Shown here in pieces: positions 1-38,881 of a DNA stretch of 38,881 nucleotides. Origin of the DNA: a virus; the IMG/VR virus record IMGVR_UViG_3300045988_103004, positions 1 through 38,881 of that record; one strand, 5' to 3'. A model generated the notes under the pieces. The model was not told where the DNA came from. It saw nothing but the letters and a program-made list of their open reading frames with translations, and did not search any database. How positions within the stretch are numbered: position 1 is the first letter of the stretch; each line of letters begins with the position of its first letter. Both the position numbers and the translations under genes were made by a program.

Positions 1-99
1 AACAGAATAAGGCTTTAATAACAAAAGCTAAATCACGCGAAATCAATGAATGTTTATCTAGAATACCTGGATGGGAATCAACCAAAGGTCCAAAAAAGT
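1..99. repeat. Terminal direct repeat identical to 38783..38881; circular permutation or assembly overlap of a circular genome
   Basis: The first 99 nt ('aacagaataaggctttaataacaaaagc...ccaaaaaagt') recur exactly as the last 99 nt of the window; an open reading frame runs continuously across the junction. Confidence 0.9.
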
Positions 100-434: not shown

Positions 435-734
435 ATGCTTGAAAACTCGGTAGAAGAAAAACTTAAAAAAGAGGTTAAAAAGATAGGTGGAAAAGCATTC
501 AAGTTTGAAAGTAGCGGAAACGATGGAGTGCCTGATAGGATTGTTATTTTACCAGGAGGAAGAATTTATTTTGTTGAGTTAAAAAGACCAAAAGGAGGAA
601 GGTTTAGAAAATTACAAAAATGGCAAATGGAACAATTAGAACAGTTAGGCTGCAATGTAAAAAAAATCAAATCATACGAAGAAGTAGAAAAGTTTATTAA
701 AGAAGTTCAGGAGGTAAAAAAGGATGAAGTATAA
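435..734 (+). CDS. VRR-NUC domain nuclease
   Basis: 99 aa; 'GVPDRIVILPGGRIYFVELKRPKGG...KLQKWQ' matches the VRR-NUC (PD-(D/E)XK) signature; sits in the typical phage position before an SNF2 helicase; RBS aaaggat. Confidence 0.7.
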   Translation: MLENSVEEKLKKEVKKIGGKAFKFESSGNDGVPDRIVILPGGRIYFVELKRPKGGRFRKLQKWQMEQLEQLGCNVKKIKSYEEVEKFIKEVQEVKKDEV

Positions 735-2103
735 CCCACATGACTATCAAGAGTTTACGACACAGAAAATGATTGATACTCCACACTTCATGGCTTTACT
801 TGATATGGGACTAGGAAAGACAGTCATAACTTTAACAGCCTTGAATGAAATGATGTTTAATTCATTTGAGATAAACAAAGTATTGGTTATAGCACCATTG
901 AGAGTTGCTGAAATGACATGGAGCGAAGAGATAGAAAAGTGGGATCATCTAAAAAATATTGTAGTCTCAAAAATTATAGGACCTGAAAAACAAAGGATTG
1001 AAGCATTGTATAAGCATGCGGATATATTTTGTATCAATAGAGAAAATACTCAATGGTTAATTGACTATTCAATAAAAAAGAAAAAATGGATATTCGATTG
1101 TATCGTCATTGATGAATCAAGCAGCTTTAAAAATAGTCAATCAAAAAGATTTAAAGCTTTAAGAAAAGTTACTGCAATAGTTCCTAGAATAATTCTATTA
1201 ACTGGAACGCCAGCACCTAATAGCTTGATGGACTTATGGTCGCAAATGTATTTAATAGATGCAGGACAACGATTAGGAAGAACTATCACAGCTTATAGAC
1301 AAGAGTTCTTTACACCAGGAAGACGAAATCGAAATGTTGTATTTGAATATGTTCCAAGACCAGAAGCGGAACAAAAAATCTATGGAAGGATTAAGGATGT
1401 AGCTGTTAGTTTAAAAGCAACAGATTATATCAAGATGCCTGAAAGAATAGATAATTATATTAAACTTCAAATGCCAAAAAGAGTTGAGGCTTTATATCAA
1501 GAAATGGAAAAAGAATATATCTTAACTCTCAATGAAGAAGATATTACAGCAGCATCAGCAGCAGTTGTATGCGGTAAGTTACTTCAAATGGCTAATGGTG
1601 CTGTTTATACAAACGAAAAAAATGTTATAGCCATTCATGATTTAAAACTAGATGCTTTACAAGAAATATTAGATGACAATCCTGGAAAGCCTATTATGGT
1701 TTTTTATAACTTCCAACATGACTTAGATAGATTGCTAGAAAGATTTAAAGAAGAAAATCCAAGAAGACTTTTATCAACAGAAGATAAAAAGGATTGGGAC
1801 AATCACCAAATAAGATTACTTTTGGCTCATCCAGCTTCAATGGGACATGGATTAAACCTACAAGCTGGAGGAAATATTATAGTTTGGTTTGGACTAACTA
1901 ATAGTCTTGAATTGTATCAGCAAGCAAATGCAAGACTTTATAGACAAGGTCAAAAAGAAACAGTGATTATCAATCATTTAATTGTTAAAGATACTGAAGA
2001 TGAAAATGTTATAAAACGACTTCAGTCAAAAAGATTAAATCAAGATGAATTAATAGAAGCTGTAAAAGCAAAGATCAGAAAATACAAGGAGGAAACATTA
2101 TGA
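724..2103 (+). CDS. SNF2/DEAD-box family helicase (phage type)
   Basis: 459 aa; Walker A 'LDMGLGKT', DExx-like 'VIDESSSF', helicase C motif 'HPASMGHGLNLQ...QANARLYRQGQ'; start overlaps the VRR-NUC gene. Confidence 0.85.
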   Translation: MKYNPHDYQEFTTQKMIDTPHFMALLDMGLGKTVITLTALNEMMFNSFEINKVLVIAPLRVAEMTWSEEIEKWDHLKNIVVSKIIGPEKQRIEALYKHADIFCINRENTQWLIDYSIKKKKWIFDCIVIDESSSFKNSQSKRFKALRKVTAIVPRIILLTGTPAPNSLMDLWSQMYLIDAGQRLGRTITAYRQEFFTPGRRNRNVVFEYVPRPEAEQKIYGRIKDVAVSLKATDYIKMPERIDNYIKLQMPKRVEALYQEMEKEYILTLNEEDITAASAAVVCGKLLQMANGAVYTNEKNVIAIHDLKLDALQEILDDNPGKPIMVFYNFQHDLDRLLERFKEENPRRLLSTEDKKDWDNHQIRLLLAHPASMGHGLNLQAGGNIIVWFGLTNSLELYQQANARLYRQGQKETVIINHLIVKDTEDENVIKRLQSKRLNQDELIEAVKAKIRKYKEETL

Positions 2104-2450: not shown

Positions 2451-2762
2451 ATGCCAACACCAGATAAAATACTAAAGTTCTATCACTCGACAGCTTGGAA
2501 GCGAGTACGTAATTTAAAAAAACAATTAGCAAGAGGAGTATGTGAACATTGCGGTGAGGCAGGATATGAAGTACATCATAAAATACCTTTAACATTAAGC
2601 AATGTAGATGATCCTAAAATTAGTTTAAGCTTGGATAATCTAGAGCTTTTATGTACTAGCTGTCATGATGCAGTTAGAGCAAATGAAAAAGAAGTAAGGA
2701 ACGATGTTACATTTGATGAGAATGGCAACTTAATTCCTAAAGAATTAAAAAGAAAAAGGTAA
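2451..2762 (+). CDS. HNH endonuclease (packaging-associated type)
   Basis: 103 aa; 'CEHCG...YEVHHKIPL...LCTSCHD' HNH zinc-finger motif; strong RBS 'gggggt' upstream. Confidence 0.8.
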   Translation: MPTPDKILKFYHSTAWKRVRNLKKQLARGVCEHCGEAGYEVHHKIPLTLSNVDDPKISLSLDNLELLCTSCHDAVRANEKEVRNDVTFDENGNLIPKELKRKR

Positions 2763-2915: not shown

Positions 2916-3650
2916 ATGCAAGTTATTAAAATGAAAATCACGGATTTAAAGCCGTATGAGAAAAATGCAAAGCTTCATCCCGATAAACAAATTAATCAGA
3001 TTGCTGAATCAATTAAAAAATTTGGGATGAATGATCCTATAGGTATATGGGGAAAACAAAATCTAATAGTGGAAGGACATGGACGATATTTAGCATGTTT
3101 GAAATTAGGAATAGAAGAAGTGGACTGTATAAGATTAGATCATTTAACCGATATAGAAAGAAAAGAATATACGTTAATTCATAATAAGACCACTATGAAT
3201 TCGGACTTTGATTTAGAAATACTAGCGGAAGAATTGAAAGACATAGCTAATGATGTAACCATCGATATGTCAGAGTTTGATTTTGAAATTCCGGCATTAG
3301 CAGATAAATTAAGCGAAGATAATTATACACCGGAACTTCCTAAAGTTCCTAAGGCAAAAAGAGGAGATATTTATAAATTAGGTAGACATCGATTGATGTG
3401 TGGTGATGCCACTGAAGAAGATGATGTGGAAAAATTAGTCGATTTAGGAAAAGTCGATATTGTAATAACTGACCCTCCATATAATGTAAATTACGAAGGC
3501 ACAGCAGGACAAATAATGAATGATAACATGGAGTCAAACAGCTTCATTAGTTTTTTAAGTAAAGCGTTTAGTTTGATGAACTTGTTTCTTAAGCCGGGGG
3601 GGGGGCATTCTATGTTTGGCATGCAAGTAGTGAGGTTTATAGCTTTGTAA
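2916..3650 (+). CDS. ParB-like nuclease domain fused to the N-terminal half of a DNA amino-methyltransferase (motif IV DPPY); terminates prematurely after the G10 tract
   Basis: ParB N-terminal domain ('KPYEKNAKLHPDKQINQIAESIKKFGMNDPI...EGHGRYLA'); 'IVITDPPYNVNYEG' motif IV of beta-class N6A/N4C methyltransferases; frame 0 reads 'LKPGGGHSMF...IAL*' through the poly-G. Confidence 0.75.
   Translation: MQVIKMKITDLKPYEKNAKLHPDKQINQIAESIKKFGMNDPIGIWGKQNLIVEGHGRYLACLKLGIEEVDCIRLDHLTDIERKEYTLIHNKTTMNSDFDLEILAEELKDIANDVTIDMSEFDFEIPALADKLSEDNYTPELPKVPKAKRGDIYKLGRHRLMCGDATEEDDVEKLVDLGKVDIVITDPPYNVNYEGTAGQIMNDNMESNSFISFLSKAFSLMNLFLKPGGGHSMFGMQVVRFIAL
3596..3605. repeat. G10 homopolymeric tract inside the methyltransferase gene; frameshift or phase-variation point
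   Basis: ccGGGGGGGGGGcat. The upstream frame (0) and downstream frame (2) would fuse with 11 or 8 G; with 10 G the gene is split. Confidence 0.85.
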
Positions 3651-3739
3651 CTGCACTCTTAAATGCAGGGCTCAAAACAAAGCAAGAGATTATCTGGAAG
3701 AAAAATGCCTTTGCATTAGGTAGGCAAGATTACCAATGG

Positions 3740-4171
3740 ATGCATGAACCTTGTTTATATGGATGGAAAGAAGGAGCAAGCCATTATTTTATCGATGATC
3801 GTAGCTATGCAACGGTAGTTGATGAAAAAGAAATTGATATAAATAAAATGAAACTTCCAGAGTTACGAAGATTGGTAAGAGATTTAATGGCACCTAAAGT
3901 CCCAGTTAGTGTGATAGAAGAGGATAAGCCATTACGAAGTATAGAGCATCCCACAATGAAGCCTATAAGACTTATAGGTAGACTGCTAAATAATTCTAGT
4001 AGACAAAATGAAACCGTCTTAGATTTGTTTGGCGGTTCAGGATCTACTCTTATTGCAGCTGAACAGCTAAATAGAAAGTGTTTGATAATGGAACTAGATC
4101 CAAAATACGTTGATGTGATTATTGATAGATACGAAAAACTAACAGGGATAAAAGCAGAAAAAATAAATTAA
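3740..4171 (+). CDS. C-terminal half of the DNA methyltransferase (motif I FGGSGST); the frame is open from 3593 without an ATG and is the continuation of 2916..3650
   Basis: Frame 2 from 3602 reads 'GAFYVWHASSEVYSFVTALLNAGLKTKQEIIWKKNAFALGRQDYQWMHEPCLYGWK...' (conserved amino-methyltransferase core), then 'LDLFGGSGSTLIAAEQLNRKCLIMELDPKY' (SAM-binding motif I). Confidence 0.75.
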   Translation: MHEPCLYGWKEGASHYFIDDRSYATVVDEKEIDINKMKLPELRRLVRDLMAPKVPVSVIEEDKPLRSIEHPTMKPIRLIGRLLNNSSRQNETVLDLFGGSGSTLIAAEQLNRKCLIMELDPKYVDVIIDRYEKLTGIKAEKIN

Positions 4172-4188: not shown

Positions 4189-5268
4189 ATGAATTTATTT
4201 AGTACAGAGCAAGTAAGTAAATATCATCCAGACAAAGTGGCTGATCAAATAAGTGATGCTATTTTAACTGAATGTTTAAAACAAGACCCTACTTCACATG
4301 TTGCAGTAGAATGCCTTATCAAATCGAATCTAGTCGTTTTAGCTGGTGAGGTGAAAACTAAAGCTAATATTAATTATAAAGATGTTGCTTCTAAGGTTTT
4401 AAGAAAATTACATTATTTAGATGAGTATGAATATCGATTTGAGATTAATATATCGGAACAAAGCCCTGAAATAGATGGAGCAGTTATCAATCAAGAAGAA
4501 GTTGATGAATTGGGTGCAGGTGATCAAGGCATTATGATTGGCTATGCTGATAGAACAACTCAAAGTAAACTACCATGGCCATTTGAACTAGCTAATAAAA
4601 TTATTAATTTGATAGAAACAGATGTTGAAAAGCCTAACTCTATTCTTAAGGGTGATGCAAAAACTCAAGTTACAGCTGATATGGATAATAGCGAACAAAA
4701 AGCAAAATTAATAATAGTTAGTGTTTGTCATAAAAGTGCAGTGGCATTTGATGATGTAAAAAAGTACATAAAAAAGATTATTGATGATAATAGCATTCAA
4801 TATGAAAGTTTAATTGTTAATCCAGGTGGTCCTTGGACAATAGGGGGACCTACTGCTGATTGTGGATTAACAGGAAGAAAGATAGTATGTGACTCTTACG
4901 GGGGGTTTATACCAGTTGGTGGCGGTGCTTTTTCTGGAAAGGATCCTACAAAAGTCGATCGTTCTGCATCCTATATGGTTAGACATATAGCATTAAGAAC
5001 GCTCGAAAAATTCCCACAATATAAAACTTGTGAAATAAGGCTAGCTTATGGAATAGGAATACCACAACCAGTATCAGTTGCTATTAATGTAACACCTCAA
5101 TTTGCAGATATGATAGAGGAAAATAGAGTGAAGCGTTTTGTACTTGCACATTTTGATTTAACACCTAAGGGGATTATAGAAACATTAAATTTGCTAAATG
5201 TAGATTATGAAAAATTAGCGGAAGGATGCCATTACAGATATGACTGGACGAAAACCAATGCCTGCTAG
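4189..5268 (+). CDS. metK: S-adenosylmethionine synthetase (methionine adenosyltransferase), phage-encoded
   Basis: 359 aa; 'KYHPDKVADQISDAILTECL...DP...AVEC', 'GAGDQGIMIGYA' (MetK signature 1), 'DAKTQVT', 'GGGAFSGKDPTKVDRSASY' (MetK signature 2); strong RBS aaaggag. Confidence 0.85.
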   Translation: MNLFSTEQVSKYHPDKVADQISDAILTECLKQDPTSHVAVECLIKSNLVVLAGEVKTKANINYKDVASKVLRKLHYLDEYEYRFEINISEQSPEIDGAVINQEEVDELGAGDQGIMIGYADRTTQSKLPWPFELANKIINLIETDVEKPNSILKGDAKTQVTADMDNSEQKAKLIIVSVCHKSAVAFDDVKKYIKKIIDDNSIQYESLIVNPGGPWTIGGPTADCGLTGRKIVCDSYGGFIPVGGGAFSGKDPTKVDRSASYMVRHIALRTLEKFPQYKTCEIRLAYGIGIPQPVSVAINVTPQFADMIEENRVKRFVLAHFDLTPKGIIETLNLLNVDYEKLAEGCHYRYDWTKTNAC

Positions 5269-20239: not shown

Positions 20240-21967
20240 ATGGAAAATGAATTAAGATTAAGACTCCATAATAATGGTAAATGGACTGAAATAATCGAAC
20301 AACCTGGCTTAGGAAATTCTTTTGAAAACAAAGCTACGACACTTGTTATAGAATTACCACAAAGCACCTATGGCTTTATGCACTTTTTAGAATTTTTAAA
20401 ACCATCAGGAAGTACTATTTCAACAGGCGCTATTGAAGAAAAAATAGATGATAGCGGAATCCATTATGTGGAATTTAAAGTAGTTAGCGGACTTATTGAT
20501 GAAAGAGGACGCTATCAAATGCAATATGTAGGTAGAAAAGGAAGTCAAACAATTACAGTTGTAAAGAGCGAGTTGAAAGCTTTAGATGTTTTTAAAAGTA
20601 TTAATTCAGGATTAGAAATTTCTATAAGTAATCCAGATTTTATTACATGGGCAACAGAAGAAATAAATAAAATGAGTAGTAGTATTTCCGAAGGCGATAA
20701 ATCAACACTTGAAGAAGCCAAGGCTTATGCTGATAAAAAGATTGCTGAAAAGCACTTAACTATTTATGGCGTTAGTGGCATAGGCGATGAAAACCCAGAA
20801 TTAACAAGAACTTATAATGCCGCAGGAATTAAACTTATTAAAACCAAAATAAATGGTAATATCGAAGTTACTGCTAACGATCCAGCGTTTCAAGAATTTT
20901 TTAACTTTAAAGAATCAACTGATGAACTAGGTAATGTGTTTGTGAACATTCCTCCTATGTCTTTTAAAATTGATAGAATTGAAAATAACGAAGTAAAAGC
21001 TATTTCTGTAAAATTATACGAAACAGGCGATGAAAATTTAGGTTTTGAGGTTCATCCGTTCTTTAGACACTATATTAACGAAACCGAGTGGGATGGTGTT
21101 ACTTCAAGACAAGTAGCTAAATACTTACTTTATTACCAAACAGAAGCTGATGGTGGCGATGGAAAAGTTCATTCTAAGTCTAATAAAAAATATGCAAGCA
21201 ATACATATTTAAATTGGGATAAAGGTAGACAAGCAATTAAAGATACTAAGGAAAGTTATGCGGTGATAAATTGGCATTTCATTTCATTCTTTAGATGGAT
21301 AACCTTGATTTATTTAGCTAGAGTAGATGTTTATAAATTTTTTGAAAAAGAAGATGTAGATGGTAAAGGCGATGAAGGAAATCCTATAGCACAACTATAT
21401 AATGCATGGAATTCAGAAACAGGACTAACAGATAGTATTGTTTCGCATACTGGTATGAATATAGAAAATACATCTATAAAATTATTCAATATTGATGATG
21501 CTTTACATGGCGTTTCATGCGGAGGTATTTATGTAAATAGTGAAGGAAAATATGGCTATTCAAATATCGCAGATTTTGATATTAACAAAGATACAGGAGC
21601 GGTAGAAGCACAGCAAGGAATTTTACAATCCATGTCTGTGGACAATGTAGAAGCTGACAATATAACTAAAATGGGTATTGTTGATGAAAACGAATATCTG
21701 CAAATGCCAGCAGCATTAAGGCTTGCAACATCAGATCTAACTTATGATTGTTCAAAAGCTTATCATAATTACTATTGTTCAAAAGCAAAATTTTGTGGTA
21801 ATCCAGCTGAAAGCGATAATCCTATTGGAAGAGCTCAAATTATATTCTTTGGTTGGACTGATGGACCATGTATAGATAATGGCCTCTTCTATTCTTACTG
21901 TTACTCTGGGGTCTACGACGCGTGGGCCGACCGCTACGGCTGCCGCCTTTGCAAACTCCCTTTATAG
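20240..21967 (+). CDS. DGR target protein (putative receptor-binding tail protein; the C-terminal about 25 aa are encoded by the variable repeat)
   Basis: 575 aa; the 3' end (21883..21952) is homologous to the downstream template repeat with mismatches only at template adenines; C-terminus '...FYSYCYSGVYDAWADRYGCRLCKLPL'. Confidence 0.8.
   Translation: MENELRLRLHNNGKWTEIIEQPGLGNSFENKATTLVIELPQSTYGFMHFLEFLKPSGSTISTGAIEEKIDDSGIHYVEFKVVSGLIDERGRYQMQYVGRKGSQTITVVKSELKALDVFKSINSGLEISISNPDFITWATEEINKMSSSISEGDKSTLEEAKAYADKKIAEKHLTIYGVSGIGDENPELTRTYNAAGIKLIKTKINGNIEVTANDPAFQEFFNFKESTDELGNVFVNIPPMSFKIDRIENNEVKAISVKLYETGDENLGFEVHPFFRHYINETEWDGVTSRQVAKYLLYYQTEADGGDGKVHSKSNKKYASNTYLNWDKGRQAIKDTKESYAVINWHFISFFRWITLIYLARVDVYKFFEKEDVDGKGDEGNPIAQLYNAWNSETGLTDSIVSHTGMNIENTSIKLFNIDDALHGVSCGGIYVNSEGKYGYSNIADFDINKDTGAVEAQQGILQSMSVDNVEADNITKMGIVDENEYLQMPAALRLATSDLTYDCSKAYHNYYCSKAKFCGNPAESDNPIGRAQIIFFGWTDGPCIDNGLFYSYCYSGVYDAWADRYGCRLCKLPL
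21883..21952 (+). repeat. DGR variable repeat (VR)
   Basis: cctcttctattctTactgtTacTCtGgggtcTacGacgcgtggGCcGacCGctacggctgccgcCttTgc; upper-case bases differ from the TR, and every difference lies opposite a TR adenine. Confidence 0.85.
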
Positions 21968-21977
21968 AGGGGTTGGT

Positions 21978-21995
21978 AAGGGGATACTTCCCCTT
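21978..21995. other. GC-rich hairpin (7-bp stem AAGGGGA/TCCCCTT, 4-nt loop TACT) 26 bp downstream of the VR; DGR cruciform/hairpin element
   Basis: Perfect stem-loop immediately 3' of the VR/IMH region, analogous to the hairpin required for efficient homing in characterised DGRs. Confidence 0.55.
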
Positions 21996-22085
21996 ATAAA
22001 ATAAACTTGCGAAGCAAGATAAGTATGATAAAATTTTAAGAAAGGGATTGTATTACCTTTGGCGTAGTTAGTGGCTAGTTTAGTT

Positions 22086-22158
22086 CCTCTTCTATTCTAA
22101 CTGTAACAATAGGGTCAACAACGCGTGGAACAACAACAACTACGGCTGCCGCATTAGC
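22086..22158 (+). repeat. DGR template repeat (TR)
   Basis: cctcttctattctaactgtaacaatagggtcaacaacgcgtggaacaacaacaactacggctgccgcattagc; rich in AAC codons when read in the VR frame; lies between the target gene and the RT. Confidence 0.85.
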
Positions 22159-22284
22159 TAAATAAATAAAATCTTTGTAATACAATTCCTGCTCCCTTGA
22201 GCAAAAGAAAATTCGATAAAGGGGCGGATTAGTAGCGTATAGATAATCGTCGAAAATCCGTTAGAGTTAGCAAAGGATTAAATT

Positions 22285-23295
22285 ATGAAAACATTAAAGA
22301 ACATCTACTCGAACCTTTACCAGCATGACACAATTAGAGATGTACTTACTGAATGTCTAAAAGACAAAAAGTATAGAAAAGAAATGCTGGGACGCTTAGA
22401 AGGTGACATTACTTATGTGCAATCATGCATGGGCACTTTTACCTTTAATAAAAAAGAAACTCATCAAGTGATAATTAGAGATCGTAAAAAAGAAAGAACG
22501 ATAACTATAAGCCCGTACTTTCCTAATAAGATATTTGATTATTTAGTTATTGCTCCATTAAAACCTATGATAAAGAAATCTATGTATAGGTGGAATGTGG
22601 GAAATGTAGAAGGTAGAGGAAAAGACATGGGAATACAGTTTCTTTATTCTCATATAAAAGGTTATAAGTATGCAATCAAACTAGACGTAAAGAAATTCTA
22701 TGACAACATAGACAAAAAGATTTTATTTAAATTGATTAAAAGAAAGGTATCAGATAGCGACTTTTTAAGAATGTATGAAGAAGTTATAGGAACAACTGGT
22801 AAAGGTCTTGATTTAGGCCTAAATTCAAGCCAGTGGCTAGCGAATTACTATTTGCAAGGCCTTGATTACTTCATAAAGCAAGAACTTAAAGCTGAAGTAT
22901 ATGTTCGCTATGTTGATGATATGATTATTCTGGGAAATAATAAAAGGAAATTGCATTATTTCATAAGAGCTATTAATCAATATTTAAAAGAAAAATTAAA
23001 TTTAAAATTAAAAGAAAATTATGCGTTGTTGAATTTAGAAAAAGGTGAAAGTGTGGAATTTGTGGGATACAAAATATCACATAAAGGAATACAACTTATA
23101 AAGCCTTTATTCCATAAGTTTATAAGACTCTACAAAAGAATGAAAGACATGTCAAAAAGACGTGCTAAAACGCTTGTTGCGCTTTGGGGATGGTTCAAAG
23201 CTACAACAGGTTCATACGCTTATTATATAAATCATTTAAGAGATACAATAATGTTCTCTGAAGTTAAAAGGTTATTAAGGAGGACCACAACATGA
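22285..23295 (+). CDS. DGR reverse transcriptase
   Basis: 336 aa; 'LDVKKFYDNID' (RT motif 2), 'LGLNSSQWLANYYLQGLD' (DGR-specific [IL]GxxxSQ motif that replaces QGxxxSP), 'YVRYVDDMIILG' (YxDD catalytic motif). Confidence 0.9.
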   Translation: MKTLKNIYSNLYQHDTIRDVLTECLKDKKYRKEMLGRLEGDITYVQSCMGTFTFNKKETHQVIIRDRKKERTITISPYFPNKIFDYLVIAPLKPMIKKSMYRWNVGNVEGRGKDMGIQFLYSHIKGYKYAIKLDVKKFYDNIDKKILFKLIKRKVSDSDFLRMYEEVIGTTGKGLDLGLNSSQWLANYYLQGLDYFIKQELKAEVYVRYVDDMIILGNNKRKLHYFIRAINQYLKEKLNLKLKENYALLNLEKGESVEFVGYKISHKGIQLIKPLFHKFIRLYKRMKDMSKRRAKTLVALWGWFKATTGSYAYYINHLRDTIMFSEVKRLLRRTTT

Positions 23296-25026: not shown

Positions 25027-25543
25027 AAGATTTTATGCATTAATTGCTACACACAAAGATCTAGGTGACCTAGAATCAAAAGCTCTTCAATGTGACAAGC
25101 ATGCCGTTGGCTTAACTAAATCAGGAAAGCTCTATAAATACAATTCACGTATTAAAGAGGCTACCGAGATTAGCGAAGAAGAAGCAGCTAACATACTTGA
25201 ATGCTCTATTGAAGATGTTAAGAAAATTAAAGAGAGTAAAGCTCGTTTTGTTTTTTCTGAACCAGTGGATGAGGTAAAAATTGTCCACCCAGTTATAGAA
25301 GAAACATTAGGCGAAGAAGAAACTCAAAATCCAGTAATTGAAAAAGAAGATGCTGAAGATGAAGAAGATGACGAAGTAGAAGATGAAGATCCTACTTCTG
25401 ATATTGATGATTTAATCGAATCAGTTGAAGATGCTTCAGCAGATGTCCAAGATGCCTTAGATAAAAACGCCGATAAAATTACAAATTTATTAACAAGAAT
25501 TGCAAATGCACTAGAAGATATTAATAAAAAACTTTTAGACTAA
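25018..25543 (+). CDS. hypothetical protein with a highly acidic C-terminal region (the ORF is open from 24911; the likely start is 25018 after aaaggag)
   Basis: 'MVKRFYALIATHKDLGDLESKALQCDKH...EDAEDEEDDEVEDEDPTSDIDDLIE'. Confidence 0.4.
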
Positions 25544-27216
25544 GCAATTGTAAAGGTGAAATCAATATTTTCAATTATATTAAATTTGAAATCAGACATA
25601 GAAACTTTCGTGCGTAAAAGTACAATCGTTGAGACGGTAGTATTACTGCGCACGAAAATGTCAGACCCTACTGATGAAGAGTAGGAGCCATTGAAAATAG
25701 GAAATTTAAAAGTAAATTCCAAACGGTCAGGATAAACTATTATACTTTCTAAAAATGTTGATATTAACATTTTACGATATTCTATATCAGATTTATCACC
25801 TTTAAGCGCCTTTAAAAAGGTGCTTTTTATTTGCTTTGTAGTAGGTAGTGGCTTATTACTTTGTGCTGCTTCAACTCGTGCTAATTCTTGATTTAGGCTT
25901 GCTTTTTTTGTTCTACAATCTTTTAAACGTTCTTCGTATTTTTCTTTACTAATTAAACCAGAAATATATGCATCAAGTAATTTGTCTTCTTGACTTTCTA
26001 ATTTTTGAATGCTCTTCTTAATAGATTTAACATCAAATAATTGTTCGCTTTGGCGTTTGCGTGCATCCTTTAATAAAGTAACAATGGAATCGATTATGCT
26101 GTCGCTAGAAATGCAACGCTCAATTAATTCTATGGTGTAGTCCTCAAGCGGTTCTTTTCTTAAAAATACATTATCACATATTTTTTTATAATCACGTACT
26201 GTACAAGCTTCTGTCTTTAAATGCCTTTTTGAGCATCGGTAAGAGTGGTATTCATATTTATAAATGCGCTCGCCTTTTCTGTTGTGACCAGTGCTCTTAG
26301 ATTTGTGGCCATAATAGTTTGAGCCACAGACTCCGCAAAAAATATAACCAGTTAATAAATAAGTTGTTTCTTTTTCTCTTGCTCTTACTTCACGAGTATG
26401 AGTCCACCATTCTTCTTGGTGCTTTTTCTTAATAGAAGAAGCCTGTTCAAACAATTCTTTACTTACAATAGCAGGACATCCATCTTCAATAGTGATGGGT
26501 GTTTTTGTTTTGTCCCTACTTCGTAGACCAAAAATATAAGTTCCTTTATACATAGGATTATCAAGCATACGAGAAATAGAGGTTGATGAAATAATTCTGC
26601 CTTGTCTATTTCTAACACCACGATCATATAAAGAGCGCGAAACTGATCCATAAGACTCACCAGAAGCAACACGTGAAAAGATTTCCTGAATAATTTTAGC
26701 TTCTTCAGGAATTATGACATACTTTTTATTTTCAACAGCATAGCCGTATGTGACATAACCACCACCTAAAAATTGGCATCTTTTAGCTGCTTCGTTTTTT
26801 CCTTTTAAAGTTTCACGTGATAAGTTTTTAGAATAATACTCAGCTAAGGCATCGTAAAGTGCCTCCATAATTCCAGCTTCTGGTGAATTATCCAAAGGCT
26901 CTAAAACAGAAATAATCCTAACCCCTGCATCACGTAATACTTTTTTATAAATAGTAGCATCGTATTTGTTTCTAGCAAAACGATCGAATTTATGAACTAT
27001 AAGGCATTCAAACTTTTTAGCTTTTGCATCGGTAATCATTTGCTGGAATTCTGCACGATCGTCAATAGTTCCAGAACGAGCTTCATCGGCATACGTAAAA
27101 GAAAGCGTATAGCCTTCACGCTCACAATAATTCTTTATAGCATTTAATTGGGCTTCAATTGAATAGCCATCTCTTTGACCTTCGGAAGAGTAACGAACAT
27201 AAGCTGCACAAATCAT
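25540..27216 (-). CDS. large serine recombinase (phage integrase)
   Basis: 558 aa; N-terminal resolvase catalytic domain 'AAYVRYSSEGQRDGYSIEAQ' (Ser nucleophile), large C-terminal recombinase/zinc-ribbon/coiled-coil region. Confidence 0.9.
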   Translation of the reverse strand: MICAAYVRYSSEGQRDGYSIEAQLNAIKNYCEREGYTLSFTYADEARSGTIDDRAEFQQMITDAKAKKFECLIVHKFDRFARNKYDATIYKKVLRDAGVRIISVLEPLDNSPEAGIMEALYDALAEYYSKNLSRETLKGKNEAAKRCQFLGGGYVTYGYAVENKKYVIIPEEAKIIQEIFSRVASGESYGSVSRSLYDRGVRNRQGRIISSTSISRMLDNPMYKGTYIFGLRSRDKTKTPITIEDGCPAIVSKELFEQASSIKKKHQEEWWTHTREVRAREKETTYLLTGYIFCGVCGSNYYGHKSKSTGHNRKGERIYKYEYHSYRCSKRHLKTEACTVRDYKKICDNVFLRKEPLEDYTIELIERCISSDSIIDSIVTLLKDARKRQSEQLFDVKSIKKSIQKLESQEDKLLDAYISGLISKEKYEERLKDCRTKKASLNQELARVEAAQSNKPLPTTKQIKSTFLKALKGDKSDIEYRKMLISTFLESIIVYPDRLEFTFKFPIFNGSYSSSVGSDIFVRSNTTVSTIVLLRTKVSMSDFKFNIIENIDFTFTIA

Positions 27217-27611
27217 TATTTACCACTTCCAAAATCTTGTTGAGCTTCTAAAAATTTTAAGTGATTATAAGCAATTTCAACATTAGCTGCCGTTAAGTTT
27301 AAAACCATTTTCATGCAAGCTAATCGTAAGTGCTTATCTTTATCACAGCTATTTGATTTCTCATATTCATTGAACATCGTCAATAATTTTTCTTCAAATG
27401 TATCTAATAAGTCAGCCTCAGTGTGATAAAGTAAAAAATCTATATCAACATGAAAATAATCGGCTAATTTTGATGCGTAGGTAACATTTAATTTACGTCT
27501 TCCGTTTTCTATTGCACTGATAATGGAAAAGTCAATTCCTACATCTTCAGCGAGCTCTCTAACAGTTAAACCACGGGATACACGTAAATTTTTTAATCTG
27601 TCATTTTTCAT
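27216..27611 (-). CDS. CI-like repressor, XRE-family HTH
   Basis: 131 aa; 'LRVSRGLTVRELAEDVGIDFSIISAIENGRRKLNVTYASKLADYF'; divergent from the early operon; stop overlaps the integrase start. Confidence 0.8.
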   Translation of the reverse strand: MKNDRLKNLRVSRGLTVRELAEDVGIDFSIISAIENGRRKLNVTYASKLADYFHVDIDFLLYHTEADLLDTFEEKLLTMFNEYEKSNSCDKDKHLRLACMKMVLNLTAANVEIAYNHLKFLEAQQDFGSGK

Positions 27612-35656: not shown

Positions 35657-36514
35657 ATGCTTGAAGAAAAGATAATATATCGCCATAAATATGAAATCGA
35701 AGGTATTACACTTCATGAATGGTGTAAACGCAATGGATGTAGTTATACAGTTGCATATAAATTAGCTGCTGAAGGTAAAACGGAAGCAGAAATAAAGAAG
35801 TATTTACTAAAGCACTATTTTAAAAGAGAAGATAACATCTATATTGATGCTTTAGTTGCTACTTCAAAATGGAAAGCAGCTAAAACAAGCTACGAAAGAA
35901 ATTGTGTGCGTTCAGAGTTTGAAGCTAACTGGGGCTCACATCATAAATACGAAGTTTTATGGGATGAAATAACCTTAGGAACTTTTGTATTTAAAGGCGA
36001 AAGGTGGTTACCAGTTCCAGGAACAAAGAGCTATGAATGCTCCAATCAAGGAAGAGTAAGAAAGAAATTACAAGGTGGAATATATAAAATACTTCATCCT
36101 TATGCAAAAAATAGATTTAACAAAAAAGGTAAAGCAAATAGAAAAATGCTTGCAGTTAAATGCGGTAATAAAGAATTTGCCTTATCTAGACTAATTGCTG
36201 AAGTGTTTATCCCACACACAGCTGACGAGAAAATCGTTTTAATAAAAGATAGAAAATGGAAGCATGTGTGGGTTGAGAACTTAGAATGGGTTAGTCGAAA
36301 AAAGGCGGGCTCTAAAACGGGGTACTGCCCTAGTCGTTCAATTGAAGTAGAACGATTAGATGATGAAGGAAATGTCATCGAAACTTATAGATCAGCAAGA
36401 GAAGCTGGAAAAGCTCTATTCATGAGTTATCAAACGGCATTAGATTACTGCCACGGAAGAGTAAGAAAGCCCATGTACAATTTGAGGTTTAAAGATAGAG
36501 GTAATAATTTATGA
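35657..36514 (+). CDS. HNH/NUMOD-type homing endonuclease-like protein
   Basis: 285 aa; 'SYECSNQGRVRKK' (NUMOD4) and 'IETYRSAREAGKALFMSYQTALDYCHGR' (NUMOD1-like HTH); inserted between the polymerase and primase genes. Confidence 0.5.
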   Translation: MLEEKIIYRHKYEIEGITLHEWCKRNGCSYTVAYKLAAEGKTEAEIKKYLLKHYFKREDNIYIDALVATSKWKAAKTSYERNCVRSEFEANWGSHHKYEVLWDEITLGTFVFKGERWLPVPGTKSYECSNQGRVRKKLQGGIYKILHPYAKNRFNKKGKANRKMLAVKCGNKEFALSRLIAEVFIPHTADEKIVLIKDRKWKHVWVENLEWVSRKKAGSKTGYCPSRSIEVERLDDEGNVIETYRSAREAGKALFMSYQTALDYCHGRVRKPMYNLRFKDRGNNL

Positions 36515-38881
36515 TTTTAAAGAATGGGAGCAGATTTGAACTAAGCATTGCAATAGGAAAATCGCGCAAAGAAACAAGATGGAAAAATATAGTCATAACA
36601 TGGCAAGAACTAGTTAATAGATTAAGTGAAACAGTTAAAACCTATGAAACTTATAATGACTACGTCTCAATGAAAAAAGATGAACAAGCTCAGATAAAAG
36701 ATGTGGGTGGTTTTGTAGGCGGTGAATTAAGAAACGGAACACGAAAAAATGAATTCGTAAAAAATAGATCCATTGTCACACTTGATATAGACTATGGCAC
36801 GCCTGATTTATGGAATGATATAGAATCATTAACAACCTATGCTCTTGTAGCTTATGGCACACATAAATACACGGAAAAAACACCTCGAATTAGATTAGTA
36901 ATACCTCTAAATAGAAAAGTTAGTCCTGAAGAATATGAAGCAATAGCAAGGAAATTAGCTTCGGAAATAGGAATGGATTATTTCGATGACACTACTTACG
37001 AACCAGCAAGACTAATGTTCTGGCCCTCAACTCCTAAAGATATTAATTACTTTTATAGAGTTCTTGATAATCCTATTCTGGATGCCGACTCAGTACTTGC
37101 AAAATATCCAGATTGGAAAGATACAAGCTATTGGCCTGAATCCAGTAGATCAGAAAAAGTAAGAGCTAAAACAGCAGACAAGCAAGGTGATCCATTAGAA
37201 AAAGAGGGATTGATTGGTGCATTTTGTAGAACTTATAGCATCCAAGAAGCAATAGAAAAATTTATCCCGGATGAATATGTAGAAGCTGGAAAAGGTCGAT
37301 ACACTTATGTAAAAGGTTCAACTTATGGTGGATTAGTAATTTACCAGGATAAATTCGCTTACAGCAATCACTCAACTGACCCAACTGGAGGAATGCTATG
37401 CAATGCATTTGATTTAGTGAGAATTCATAAATTCCACGATGAAGATGCAGAAGCAAAAGAAGGAACTCCAGTTAATAAATTACCATCATGGAATATGATG
37501 ATGGACTTAGTAAGAACTGATAAAGAAGTCAGGGTTACAATCGCTAAGGAGCGACAATCTGAAGCAGCTAAAGAATTTGCACCCCAAGACGAAGAAATCG
37601 CACCAGAAGAAGAATTAGACACAAAGTGGATGGAAAGTCTTACGGTAGGTAAAAATGGAATAATTGAAACTACACGTAACAATTTAATTTTAATTTTAAA
37701 AAACGATCCTAGACTAAATGGCCTAGGAAAATTAAACCTCTTTAATGGGAGGTACATAGTTACTTCTAAATTGCCATGGGTACGAAATAGCGAATGCTGG
37801 ACTGATGTCGATGATGCCGGATTAATGTGGTACGTTGAAGAAGCTTATAGCATCGAAGGAAAACAAAAAATTCTCGATGCAAAAAATTTAGTATTTAATG
37901 AACGTGCTTATCATCCTGTAAAAGAATATTTGAATAGTCTTAAATGGGATGGAAAGCCTAGAGTTGAAAGTCTATTTTGCGATTATCTCGGCGCAGATAG
38001 AAACGAATATACTTATGAGATTACAAGAAAAACATTAGCTGCAGCTGTGGCAAGAATTTTTAATCCTGGATGTAAATTTGACTTTATGCTTACATTGGTA
38101 GGACCGCAAGGGATAGGAAAGTCAATGTTATTAGCTAGATTAGGCGGCGAGTGGTTTAGCGATACTTTAACAGATGTAAAAGGCAAGGAATCGTATGAAG
38201 CACTAGACGGCGTATGGATTATGGAAATGGGAGAACTTACAGCTTTAAAAAGAAGTGAAAGAGAAACTATTAAACAGTACATATCGAAGCAAGTAGATAC
38301 TTACAGAAAGGCTTATGAACGCAATGTTACAGTTAATAAGCGTCAATGTATTTTTATAGGAACAACTAATGATAATGAATTTTTAAATGACTCAACAGGT
38401 GGACGAAGGTTCTGGGTAATTGATACCCACATAGAACAAAGAGTAAAAAAAGTATGGGATGATTTTACTGATGAAGAAAGAGACCAAGTGTGGGCAGAAG
38501 CAGTGCAAATTTATAGAAAGGGTGAATCCATTAATGGATTAAGTGATGAAACACTTAGAAAGGCTCAAGACTTACAACAATCACACTCTGAAGATAATGA
38601 CATGCTAGGTTTAATTGAAGTTTATTTAAATACGCCTATACCATCTAACTGGGATAAATTGTCAATTCCAGAACGTACTCAATGGATCAATGCTACTGAT
38701 GAATTTAGAGACACATCAAATAAAGATGATTTAAAAGTGCGAACACGCATATCAGCAATAGAAGTATGGTGTGAATGTTTGCAACAGAATAAGGCTTTAA
38801 TAACAAAAGCTAAATCACGCGAAATCAATGAATGTTTATCTAGAATACCTGGATGGGAATCAACCAAAGGTCCAAAAAAGT
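36511..38881 (+). CDS. bifunctional AEP primase-polymerase / D5-VirE-type helicase. The 3' end is cut by the window; the frame continues through the terminal repeat to a TAG at 147..149, so the gene is complete on the circular genome.
   Basis: Open frame with no stop for 790 codons; AEP motif 'IVTLDIDYG'; P-loop 'GPQGIGKS'; 'IFIGTTNDNEFLNDSTGGRRFWVI' (VirE/D5 C-terminal). Not listed in the ORF track because no in-window stop. Confidence 0.8.
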   Translation, partial: MILKNGSRFELSIAIGKSRKETRWKNIVITWQELVNRLSETVKTYETYNDYVSMKKDEQAQIKDVGGFVGGELRNGTRKNEFVKNRSIVTLDIDYGTPDLWNDIESLTTYALVAYGTHKYTEKTPRIRLVIPLNRKVSPEEYEAIARKLASEIGMDYFDDTTYEPARLMFWPSTPKDINYFYRVLDNPILDADSVLAKYPDWKDTSYWPESSRSEKVRAKTADKQGDPLEKEGLIGAFCRTYSIQEAIEKFIPDEYVEAGKGRYTYVKGSTYGGLVIYQDKFAYSNHSTDPTGGMLCNAFDLVRIHKFHDEDAEAKEGTPVNKLPSWNMMMDLVRTDKEVRVTIAKERQSEAAKEFAPQDEEIAPEEELDTKWMESLTVGKNGIIETTRNNLILILKNDPRLNGLGKLNLFNGRYIVTSKLPWVRNSECWTDVDDAGLMWYVEEAYSIEGKQKILDAKNLVFNERAYHPVKEYLNSLKWDGKPRVESLFCDYLGADRNEYTYEITRKTLAAAVARIFNPGCKFDFMLTLVGPQGIGKSMLLARLGGEWFSDTLTDVKGKESYEALDGVWIMEMGELTALKRSERETIKQYISKQVDTYRKAYERNVTVNKRQCIFIGTTNDNEFLNDSTGGRRFWVIDTHIEQRVKKVWDDFTDEERDQVWAEAVQIYRKGESINGLSDETLRKAQDLQQSHSEDNDMLGLIEVYLNTPIPSNWDKLSIPERTQWINATDEFRDTSNKDDLKVRTRISAIEVWCECLQQNKALITKAKSREINECLSRIPGWESTKGPKK

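Follow-up and report, generated by a model that had tools for sequence, protein, structure and literature searches.

A length-variable poly-G tract as a probable ON/OFF switch in a phage orphan DNA methyltransferase gene

Introduction

In bacterial pathogens, phase-variable DNA methyltransferases (methylases) are familiar, and a classic form of phase variation is the poly-G tract in an AT-rich genome. Type III mod and Type I hsd genes are the standard cases of methylase switching driven by simple sequence repeats (PMC5909438, PMC13076061). Here, we examine a run of ten G residues (G10) that interrupts a ParB-like/beta-class DNA methyltransferase gene in the IMG/VR virus record IMGVR_UViG_3300045988_103004, a stretch of 38,881 nt that was analyzed at its full length and is called the window below. 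Tracts of 6 to 10 G occur at this site in near-identical phages, which argues that the run acts as a hypermutable switch and is neither a sequencing error nor the scar of a dead gene. We consider it probable that the poly-G run is a genuine hypermutable ON/OFF tract, and thus a contingency locus in a phage orphan methylase. From its reading frames, the window is predicted to hold an OFF (G10) allele of a gene whose natural ON length is G8.

Like the bacterial phasevarions, the window gene has a repeat tract inside its open reading frame (ORF) that would switch a methylase ON and OFF by slipped-strand mispairing. It differs from them in lying on a predicted temperate phage and in encoding an orphan, Type II-like beta-class enzyme that carries a ParB-like domain and has no res or hsd partner. 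The place of the gene between the replication and packaging modules makes phage DNA, rather than a host regulon, the likely target.

The closest experimental analogue is the agt gene of phage T2, in which an A9 tract toggles glucosylation of hydroxymethylcytosine (hmC) and T2 hedges between TgvAB and McrA/BC (10.1101/2025.10.21.683753). Both are in-gene homopolymers in phage DNA-modification genes, and for T2 the reversible knock-out has been shown experimentally. T2, however, is a virulent coliphage with an A9 tract in a glucosylation gene, whereas the window represents a putatively temperate gut phage with G6-G10 tracts in a methyltransferase gene, for which the evidence is comparative only. 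Unlike the agt tract, the one studied here keeps its position across many diverged lineages. To our knowledge, the description of phage contingency loci has only begun, with the receptor genes of Campylobacter phages and, in a 2025 preprint, with T2/T4.

Liu et al. (2004) reportedly noted, but did not study, a poly-G run in the bpm methylase gene of phage BPP-1. Upon inspection of the BPP-1 genome, we found a G8 run in bpm (CCG GGG GGG GTG), and no other G/C run of that genome reaches 8. BPP-1 resembles the window phage in being temperate, in carrying a diversity-generating retroelement (DGR), and in encoding an orphan beta-class (adenine) methylase with a G run. Its bpm product, by comparison, has 251 aa, no ParB domain, and 23% identity to the window protein; the bpm run lies just before motif I, whereas the window run lies at the LKPGG turn after motif IV, and the two tracts are therefore independent and non-homologous. 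Sorensen et al. (2021; Cell Rep 35:109214) are said to have found poly-G tracts of 7-11 G in the receptor-binding proteins of Campylobacter Fletchervirus, with phenotypic subpopulations as the outcome. Those tracts are phage-borne like the one in the window, but they sit in tail-fiber genes, concern adsorption, and belong to virulent phages. A paper on the CJIE1 prophage was considered as a further precedent and rejected, as its tracts are chromosomal and not in a phage methylase.

With regard to the protein itself, the methylase and ParB passages of PMC12704722 report that fusions of a ParB-CTPase fold to an N6_N4 methyltransferase are enriched in phages and prophages, with a suggested anti-defense role, and the window protein appears to share the domain architecture described there. 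The corresponding passages of PMC7736820 present the plasmid enzymes M.EcoGIX and M.BceJIII as promiscuous (SAY) anti-restriction methylases of mobile elements; we set these beside the window enzyme by their published description, not by sequence. No mention of a homopolymer switch was found in those passages of either paper, and in the literature searched we came upon no report of phage ParB-methylases with a site-conserved tract. Slipped-strand methylase switching is itself known; a conserved, polymorphic tract across a phage clade appears to be undescribed.

The poly-G tract and the reading frame

The tract is a compositional outlier. No other G or C run of the window exceeds 6: the remaining G runs of note are two of G6, and no C run reaches 6. 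At 33.4% GC (19% G and 14% C), 0.002 G/C runs of at least 10 would be expected in the window from an independent, identically distributed composition, and the three overlapping G8-mers observed compare with a mean of 0.04 in dinucleotide shuffles. An earlier note on this DNA, made from the sequence alone, had placed the run at 3596..3605 inside the methylase gene at 2916..4171, downstream of the catalytic DPPY motif, and this position proved exact (Table 1).

The frame that begins at ATG 2916, preceded by a GGAGG ribosome-binding site, gives a product of 244 aa that ends at the TAA at 3648..3650. The +2 frame is open from 3593 to a stop at 4169..4171, and it encodes the peptides FYVWHA (3608..3625), QEIIWKKN (3683..3706), YQWMHEPCLYGWK (3731..3769), and FGGSGST (4028..4048). 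The earliest start codon of any kind in this frame is ATG 3740, so the conserved continuation lacks a start of its own, as the earlier note had also stated. By computation, the frame is restored by G8 (417 aa) and by G11 (418 aa), and G9, G10, and G12 fail to restore it. The expectation in the earlier note that 8 or 11 G would give a protein of about 415 aa therefore holds as frame arithmetic, but only G8 has been found in nature; a G11 allele was never seen. The OFF lengths G6, G7, G9, and G10 truncate the protein at 236-244 aa. As in other simple-sequence-repeat contingency loci, an uninterrupted repeat lies within the ORF and its length sets the reading frame.

Downstream of the break, gene callers annotate a 143-aa ORF, and identical copies of this protein occur on 57 contigs and in 107 blocks of the protein collection in the index. 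Codons 229-274 are not translated in the proper frame in any OFF product, so an OFF allele cannot make the methylase. Reconstitution of the enzyme from the 244-aa and 143-aa fragments was considered and rejected, because these codons (FYVWHA ... QEIIWKKN) are properly translated in neither fragment.

Tract length on near-identical backgrounds

Tract lengths were read from consensus assemblies. Public assemblies contain intact 417-aa proteins, P0001 and P0125, that are identical to the window protein apart from the tract and that occur on many contigs, integrated prophages included. The same 90% protein cluster also holds products of 244, 243, 237, and 236 aa. At the DNA level, 28 independent contigs with identical tract flanks carried G8 (16 contigs), G7 (six), G9 and G10 (two each), G6 (one), or an interrupted G4TG4 tract, GGGGTGGGG (one). 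Peptide signatures extended the count to 78 contig instances, of which 26 had G7, 21 had G9, 18 had G8, 9 had G6, 3 had G10, and 1 had G4TG4. A tract-blind sample of 10 long prophage contigs, anchored on the HNH gene, contained 6 ON and 4 OFF alleles.

Some of these alleles differ at the tract and nowhere else in the gene. The window gene (G10) is identical to L035 and L038 (both G8) over its whole length when the tract is disregarded, and L026 (G9) is likewise identical to L127 (G8). To obtain a rate, we built a neighbor-joining tree of the gene with the tract removed and counted tract changes by parsimony. On this tree, the tract must have changed at least 11 times, with 10 of the changes flipping the gene between ON and OFF, against a background of 76 substitutions over 1246 sites (0.061 per average site), which makes the tract at least 180-fold faster. 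Control runs of A7, A8, G5, and G6 in the same contigs were invariant, except for one A8 to A7 change found in six contigs. Such length polymorphism among near-identical genomes, far above the background rate, is a mark of a contingency locus. The proposal in the earlier note of a phase-variable gene that is currently OFF thus gains support from the existence of the G8 allele, from the G6-G10 lengths on near-identical backgrounds, from the stable controls, and from the downstream purifying selection described below.

Two further lesions were observed in this set. In L028 (ERR1137366), the tract is interrupted and out of frame, and the same peptide signature occurs in P0122 on a 54-kb contig; judged from its sequence, this allele would be locked OFF. 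In L122/L124 (OLIW01000200.1), which have G7, one unit of a GATA-GATA repeat is lost through a 4-nt deletion at the equivalent of window positions 4121..4124, near the 3' end of the methylase gene. The deletion gives a 135-aa downstream ORF that is present on 8 contigs.

Close copies were scarce in other collections. In IMG/VR, a long exact-flank pattern returned no close copy and a shorter version returned one JGI contig, L122. The species-representative genomes held no close copy, with a best match of 49%, and among GenBank phages no relative exceeded 50% amino acid identity and none matched the structural region at the nucleotide level.

G runs at the equivalent site of diverged lineages

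The peptide LKxGG(A/S/V)FY is conserved in the family, and diverged lineages carry a G run at this same site. The codons read AGG-GGG-GGG in L133 (G8, ON; locus GC 45%), AAG-GGG-GGG in L141-146 (G7, OFF, 9 contigs; 38%), GCG-GGG-GGG-GG in L147 (G9, OFF; 29%), and TCG-GGG-GGG-GG in L148-149, which include one NCBI genome (G9, OFF; 49%). When set to G8, each of these lineages gives a full-length ORF, except for two loci cut by contig ends. The AAG lineage, whose N-terminal part is 82% identical to the window protein, occurs with G6, G7, G8 (419 aa, ON), and G9.

We also scanned IMG/VR for a pattern of at least G7 followed by codons for F-Y-x-W, which gave at least 119 loci, and at least 44 family members have the run at the LKxGG site. 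Among the IMG/VR matches listed, a strict subset of 25 comprises 16 codon contexts, with 16 ON and 9 OFF alleles. Two contexts show both states among these matches: CGT-GAA, with G7 ON three times and G8 OFF three times, and AAA-GAC, with G7 ON and G8 OFF. The in-frame length is set by context, being 7 after NNA, 8 after NNG, and 9 after NGG, and it follows that the flanking codons tend to lengthen the run. The earlier note had suggested comparing tract length among related phages; the length ranges from G6 to G10, and the site is kept in diverged lineages.

Other broken methylases were seen in the family. Split methylases of S. pyogenes phages (Javan476 and others) were considered as further examples of the switch and rejected, as they break at another site and have no tract. 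In Streptococcus phage Javan476 (L135; MK448954.1 13823..14989), the homologous methylase is annotated as two coding sequences of 311 and 71 aa; the break lies near the C-terminus, away from LKxGG, and the upstream coding sequence has no G/C run of 6 or more. In the truncated homologues P0166 and P0196, the frame apparently shifts a few codons before the Gly-Gly site (LKK-W..., MKP-E...), and these peptides suggest that other lineages may slip in neighboring A or C runs.

Selection and alternative explanations

Across 21 haplotypes, the ratio of nonsynonymous to synonymous polymorphism (pN/pS) is 0.057 in the part before the tract and 0.012 in the part after it. These values point to strong purifying selection on the downstream half and to a gene that is not decaying. 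Once the tract is repaired, the 21 haplotypes contain no further stops, and the exceptions to intactness are the GATA deletion of L122/L124 and the tract of L028. Codon usage bears on the tract as well: GGG accounts for 5.5% of Gly codons and CCG for 5.6% of Pro codons in the genome, and given the rarity of both, the chance of CCG-GGG-GGG is P = 1.7e-4. The tract is thus kept while the remainder of the gene stays under purifying selection, as in contingency loci.

Several observations weigh against a switch, and they are taken here together with the explanations that they would favor. The data are consensus assemblies only, many related contigs are of low coverage by name (several at 2-8x), and the window is itself a MEGAHIT contig from short reads. 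Poly-G is error-prone and a weak spot of Illumina chemistry. It could therefore be argued that the phage is truly G8 and that the odd lengths are artefacts of homopolymer sequencing or assembly, a view that we regard as very unlikely. Deviations of -2, -1, +1, and +2 appear in the consensus across studies, across assemblers (SPAdes, MEGAHIT, and Logan), and in NCBI genomes, and the same OFF proteins recur, with P0123 (G7) on 17 contigs, P0124 (G9) on 10, and P0153 (G7) on 9. A G10 tract is also present on a second contig of a different haplotype (L027), the 244-aa product of the window comes from three sources on 3 contigs, and the A7, A8, G5, and G6 runs are stable in the very contigs in which the tract varies. 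Sequencing error, which the earlier note had offered as its alternative, is unlikely as an account of the whole phenomenon in view of the recurrence across assemblers and the stable controls; an error in this one contig stays formally conceivable. The parsimony count of tract changes is open to a different objection, namely that recombination could inflate it.

The remaining points concern the value of the gene to the phage. Most alleles in the cluster tally are OFF (60 versus 18 ON), L122/L124 carry an additional frameshift, and the OFF tract of L028 is interrupted, all of which relaxed selection fits as well as switching does. Some lineages, moreover, have no tract. The homologue P0019 (58% identity) reads CCA-GGC-GGG-GCT at the site, the best 80 IMG/VR matches (41-48% identity) are without the run, with K-P-G-A-V as their usual reading, and no more than G5 is present there in the named phages Javan178, EJ-1, FP_Epona, and Javan476 (Streptococcus, Faecalibacterium). 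The earlier note had held that homologues with no homopolymer at this position would speak against a switch; distant homologues do lack it, whereas the close and intermediate ones keep it. One could conclude that the run is a non-adaptive mutational hotspot in a dispensable methylase that is repeatedly knocked out, with OFF alleles representing loss of function en route to a pseudogene. We think this unlikely, given the downstream pN/pS of 0.012, the absence of extra stops in the 21 haplotypes, and OFF alleles in four other lineages that are intact apart from the tract. The hotspot would be abolished by one synonymous change to GGA or GGT, the preferred codons, yet the rare codons are retained (P ~2e-4), and in many lineages, at 29-52% GC, the run is lengthened by preceding NNG or NGG codons and by following codons that start with G. 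Programmed recoding would dispense with a switch altogether, as transcriptional slippage or ribosomal frameshifting would produce the full-length enzyme, or two products, from seemingly OFF genomes. RNA polymerase slippage is an established possibility at long homopolymers, and a truncated ParB-domain product alongside a full-length one is conceivable. The out-of-frame alleles, however, fall in both the +1 and -1 frames at four lengths, and no single recoding signal would rescue them all; within a lineage, moreover, the length of a programmed site would be expected to stay constant. We saw no stimulatory structure downstream, although no search was aimed at one, and overall we judge recoding to be extremely improbable.

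Proposed switch and its consequences

For the hypermutable contingency locus that we favor, the following mechanism can be drawn. Slipped-strand mispairing during replication, as established for homopolymers, would add or remove G residues within the codons of the conserved Gly-Gly turn that lies between motif IV and the remaining catalytic and S-adenosylmethionine (SAM)-binding motifs. With G8, the 417-aa enzyme would be made (ON); with G6, G7, G9, or G10, translation would stop after 236-244 aa, before motifs V-VIII, X, and I (OFF). Phage and lysogen populations would then consist of a heritable and presumably reversible mix of methylating and non-methylating genomes. Given the place of its gene between the replication genes and the terminase, the enzyme may methylate phage DNA before packaging. 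The ON state could protect phage DNA against classical restriction-modification, and the OFF state could avoid methylation-dependent (Type IV) restriction together with any cost of promiscuous methylation. Adaptive bet-hedging across hosts is plausible.

A broader proposal is worth stating, although we advance it tentatively and with some doubt. The switch may be conserved by selection across a ParB-methyltransferase clade of uncultured temperate phages, many of them from the gut, as a general bet-hedging device, operating in this phage alongside a DGR that diversifies a receptor-binding protein, so that host range would be varied by two independent devices; the truncated OFF product, with its ParB-like domain, might itself function. 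Phage bursts and lysogen lineages would yield both genome types, some surviving classical restriction and others surviving methylation-dependent (Type IV, DpnI-like) restriction.

If the switch is genuine, the anti-restriction methylase of temperate phages that infect gut bacteria contains a conserved homopolymer switch, whose ON and OFF alleles are visible directly, on near-identical genomes, in public metagenomes. Methylase genes called as split or as 'pseudogene' in phage genomes would need to be re-read, the 143-aa 'DNA modification methylase' ORF on its 57 contigs being one example, and the tract would provide a natural marker for phage-host restriction dynamics in vivo. Our work raises the question of whether phages hedge between methylation-sensitive and methylation-dependent defenses.

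The gene product

The repaired protein matches Pfam N6_N4_Mtase (PF01555) at 107.7 bits (1e-30; cut-off 26.7) and the phage family phrog_498, 'DNA methyltransferase', at 5.5e-146. Among solved structures, the repaired protein matches the beta-class amino-methyltransferases 8urk, CcrM, MboIIA, RsrI, DpnA, and M.PvuII. Motif IV (DPPY, 3471..3482) precedes motif I (FGGSGST, 4028..4048), which is the beta-class order. From the profile matches and the motif order, the enzyme is predicted to be a beta-class methylase of the N6-adenine/N4-cytosine type. DPPY favors N6-adenine, and its presence suggests that the putative target base is N6-adenine. The family is common in phages, with 969 GenBank phage records matched by tblastn (best identity 50%).

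The earlier note had assigned a ParB nuclease-like domain to the N-terminus. This assignment gains support at the level of phage families, as the N-terminal 140 aa match the ParB-like PHROGs phrog_620 (1.7e-42) and phrog_8071 (1e-32), but the Pfam ParB_N model (PF02195) reaches only 20.4 bits (E 5e-4) on the window protein, below its cut-off of 26.3. The N-terminal part also matches Spo0J (1vz0) weakly (E 8e-4), and PF02195 is carried by most homologues at 55-60% identity.

Among PADLOC models, the best match is to a Type II methylase (6e-104), and Type III models match only at 1e-10 to 1e-11, over motif I. The architecture of a Type III mod-type phasevarion is not present, and no neighboring gene is res-like. 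The methylase gene is surrounded by genes for a 103-aa HNH protein, MetK, and the terminase subunits, and no restriction endonuclease was matched among the 10 window proteins scanned with PADLOC. By this survey, the methylase is predicted to be an orphan, with no cognate restriction endonuclease beside its gene among the neighbors examined; the orphan status proposed in the earlier note holds to that extent.

Phage genome and neighborhood

The ends of the window share a 99-nt direct overlap (1..99 and 38783..38881). As this overlap equals the MEGAHIT k-mer length, the window represents a complete circular genome of ~38.8 kb; it corresponds to the ENA contig ERZ27261494:k99_157652. A family-A DNA polymerase is encoded in the phage genome. 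Contigs of 60-778 kb contain integrated copies of related phages, with a junction near window position ~25645. The host flanks of the integrated copies have 29-33% GC and contain GH43, GH3, and LacI genes. From the large serine recombinase and repressor (Table 1) and the integrated relatives, the phage is predicted to be temperate, and its host is predicted to be a low-GC gut bacterium.

In the integrated copies L139 and L140, which adjoin different host genes, phage homology stops within the serine recombinase gene, ~105 nt in from its 3' end. This places the attachment site partly within the coding sequence of the integrase, whose C-terminus changes upon integration. Since the 3' end of the integrase gene contains the prophage junction, the exact integrase is found on phage-length contigs only.

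Table 1. Positions of the methylase gene, its parts, and other features in the window
Feature	Position	Strand	Remarks
HNH endonuclease gene	2451..2762	+	small phage type found beside terminase genes; no PADLOC match
ParB-like/beta-class DNA methyltransferase gene (predicted)	2916..4171	+	PF01555 1e-30; phrog_498 5.5e-146; interrupted here, 417 aa if G8
N-terminal ParB/Srx-like domain (predicted)	2916..3335	+	aa 1 to ~140; GHGR box at 3075..3086
Catalytic motif IV (DPPY)	3471..3482	+	upstream of the tract
Hypermutable poly-G tract	3596..3605	+	G10; codons of the conserved Pro-Gly-Gly-Ala turn (LKPGGA); in-frame length 8
Conserved coding stretch FYVWHA ... QEIIWKKN	3606..3739	+	not translated in the proper frame in an OFF allele
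Premature stop TAA	3648..3650	+	used in the G10 and G7 frame; 244-aa product without motifs V-VIII, X, and I
143-aa ORF, C-terminal part of the methylase	3740..4171	+	SAM-binding motif I FGGSGST at 4028..4048; annotated by gene callers in OFF alleles
S-adenosylmethionine synthetase gene (metK)	4189..5268	+	complete; three MetK Pfam domains; phrog_1569 'unknown function'
DGR region	20240..23295		
DGR variable repeat (VR)	21883..21947		65 nt
DGR template repeat (TR)	22086..22150		
DGR reverse transcriptase (RT) gene	22285..23295		
Large serine recombinase and repressor	25540..27611	-	integrase gene 25540..27216
285-aa ORF	35657..36514		NUMOD4 motif; PADLOC homing-endonuclease match

The genes for replication, HNH protein, methylase, MetK, and terminase follow one another on one strand, an order that suggests lytic-cycle expression of the methylase. 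A scan for promoters and terminators gave counts no higher than in shuffled sequence and no terminator-like site on the gene strand, which is weak evidence. The HNH protein is not a restriction partner. The metK gene starts 17 nt after the methylase gene and has its own ribosome-binding site, and MetK may supply the methyl donor. The methylase-metK synteny recurs in L133, L141-146, and L148-149, and it is partial or truncated in L134 and L147. The idea that MetK is a general partner of the switch was considered and rejected: metK is missing next to the tract-bearing IMG/VR homologues, so the link is specific to the subclade of the window.

In the DGR, a 575-aa tail-module ORF carries the variable repeat at its 3' end; this repeat is 74% identical to a template repeat 203 nt downstream. 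The mismatches between the two repeats fall at template adenines, and the reverse transcriptase gene then follows. With the DGR and the poly-G tract, the phage has two hypervariation devices, like BPP-1. Judging from its motif and profile matches, the 285-aa ORF that directly follows the DNA polymerase gene probably encodes a free-standing homing endonuclease. The SNF2 helicase gene, at the equivalent of window positions 724..2103, is split or shortened in L024 (ERR4564919) and L037, with products of 225 + 179 aa and of 423 aa, and these calls suggest possible further frameshifts elsewhere in the genome.

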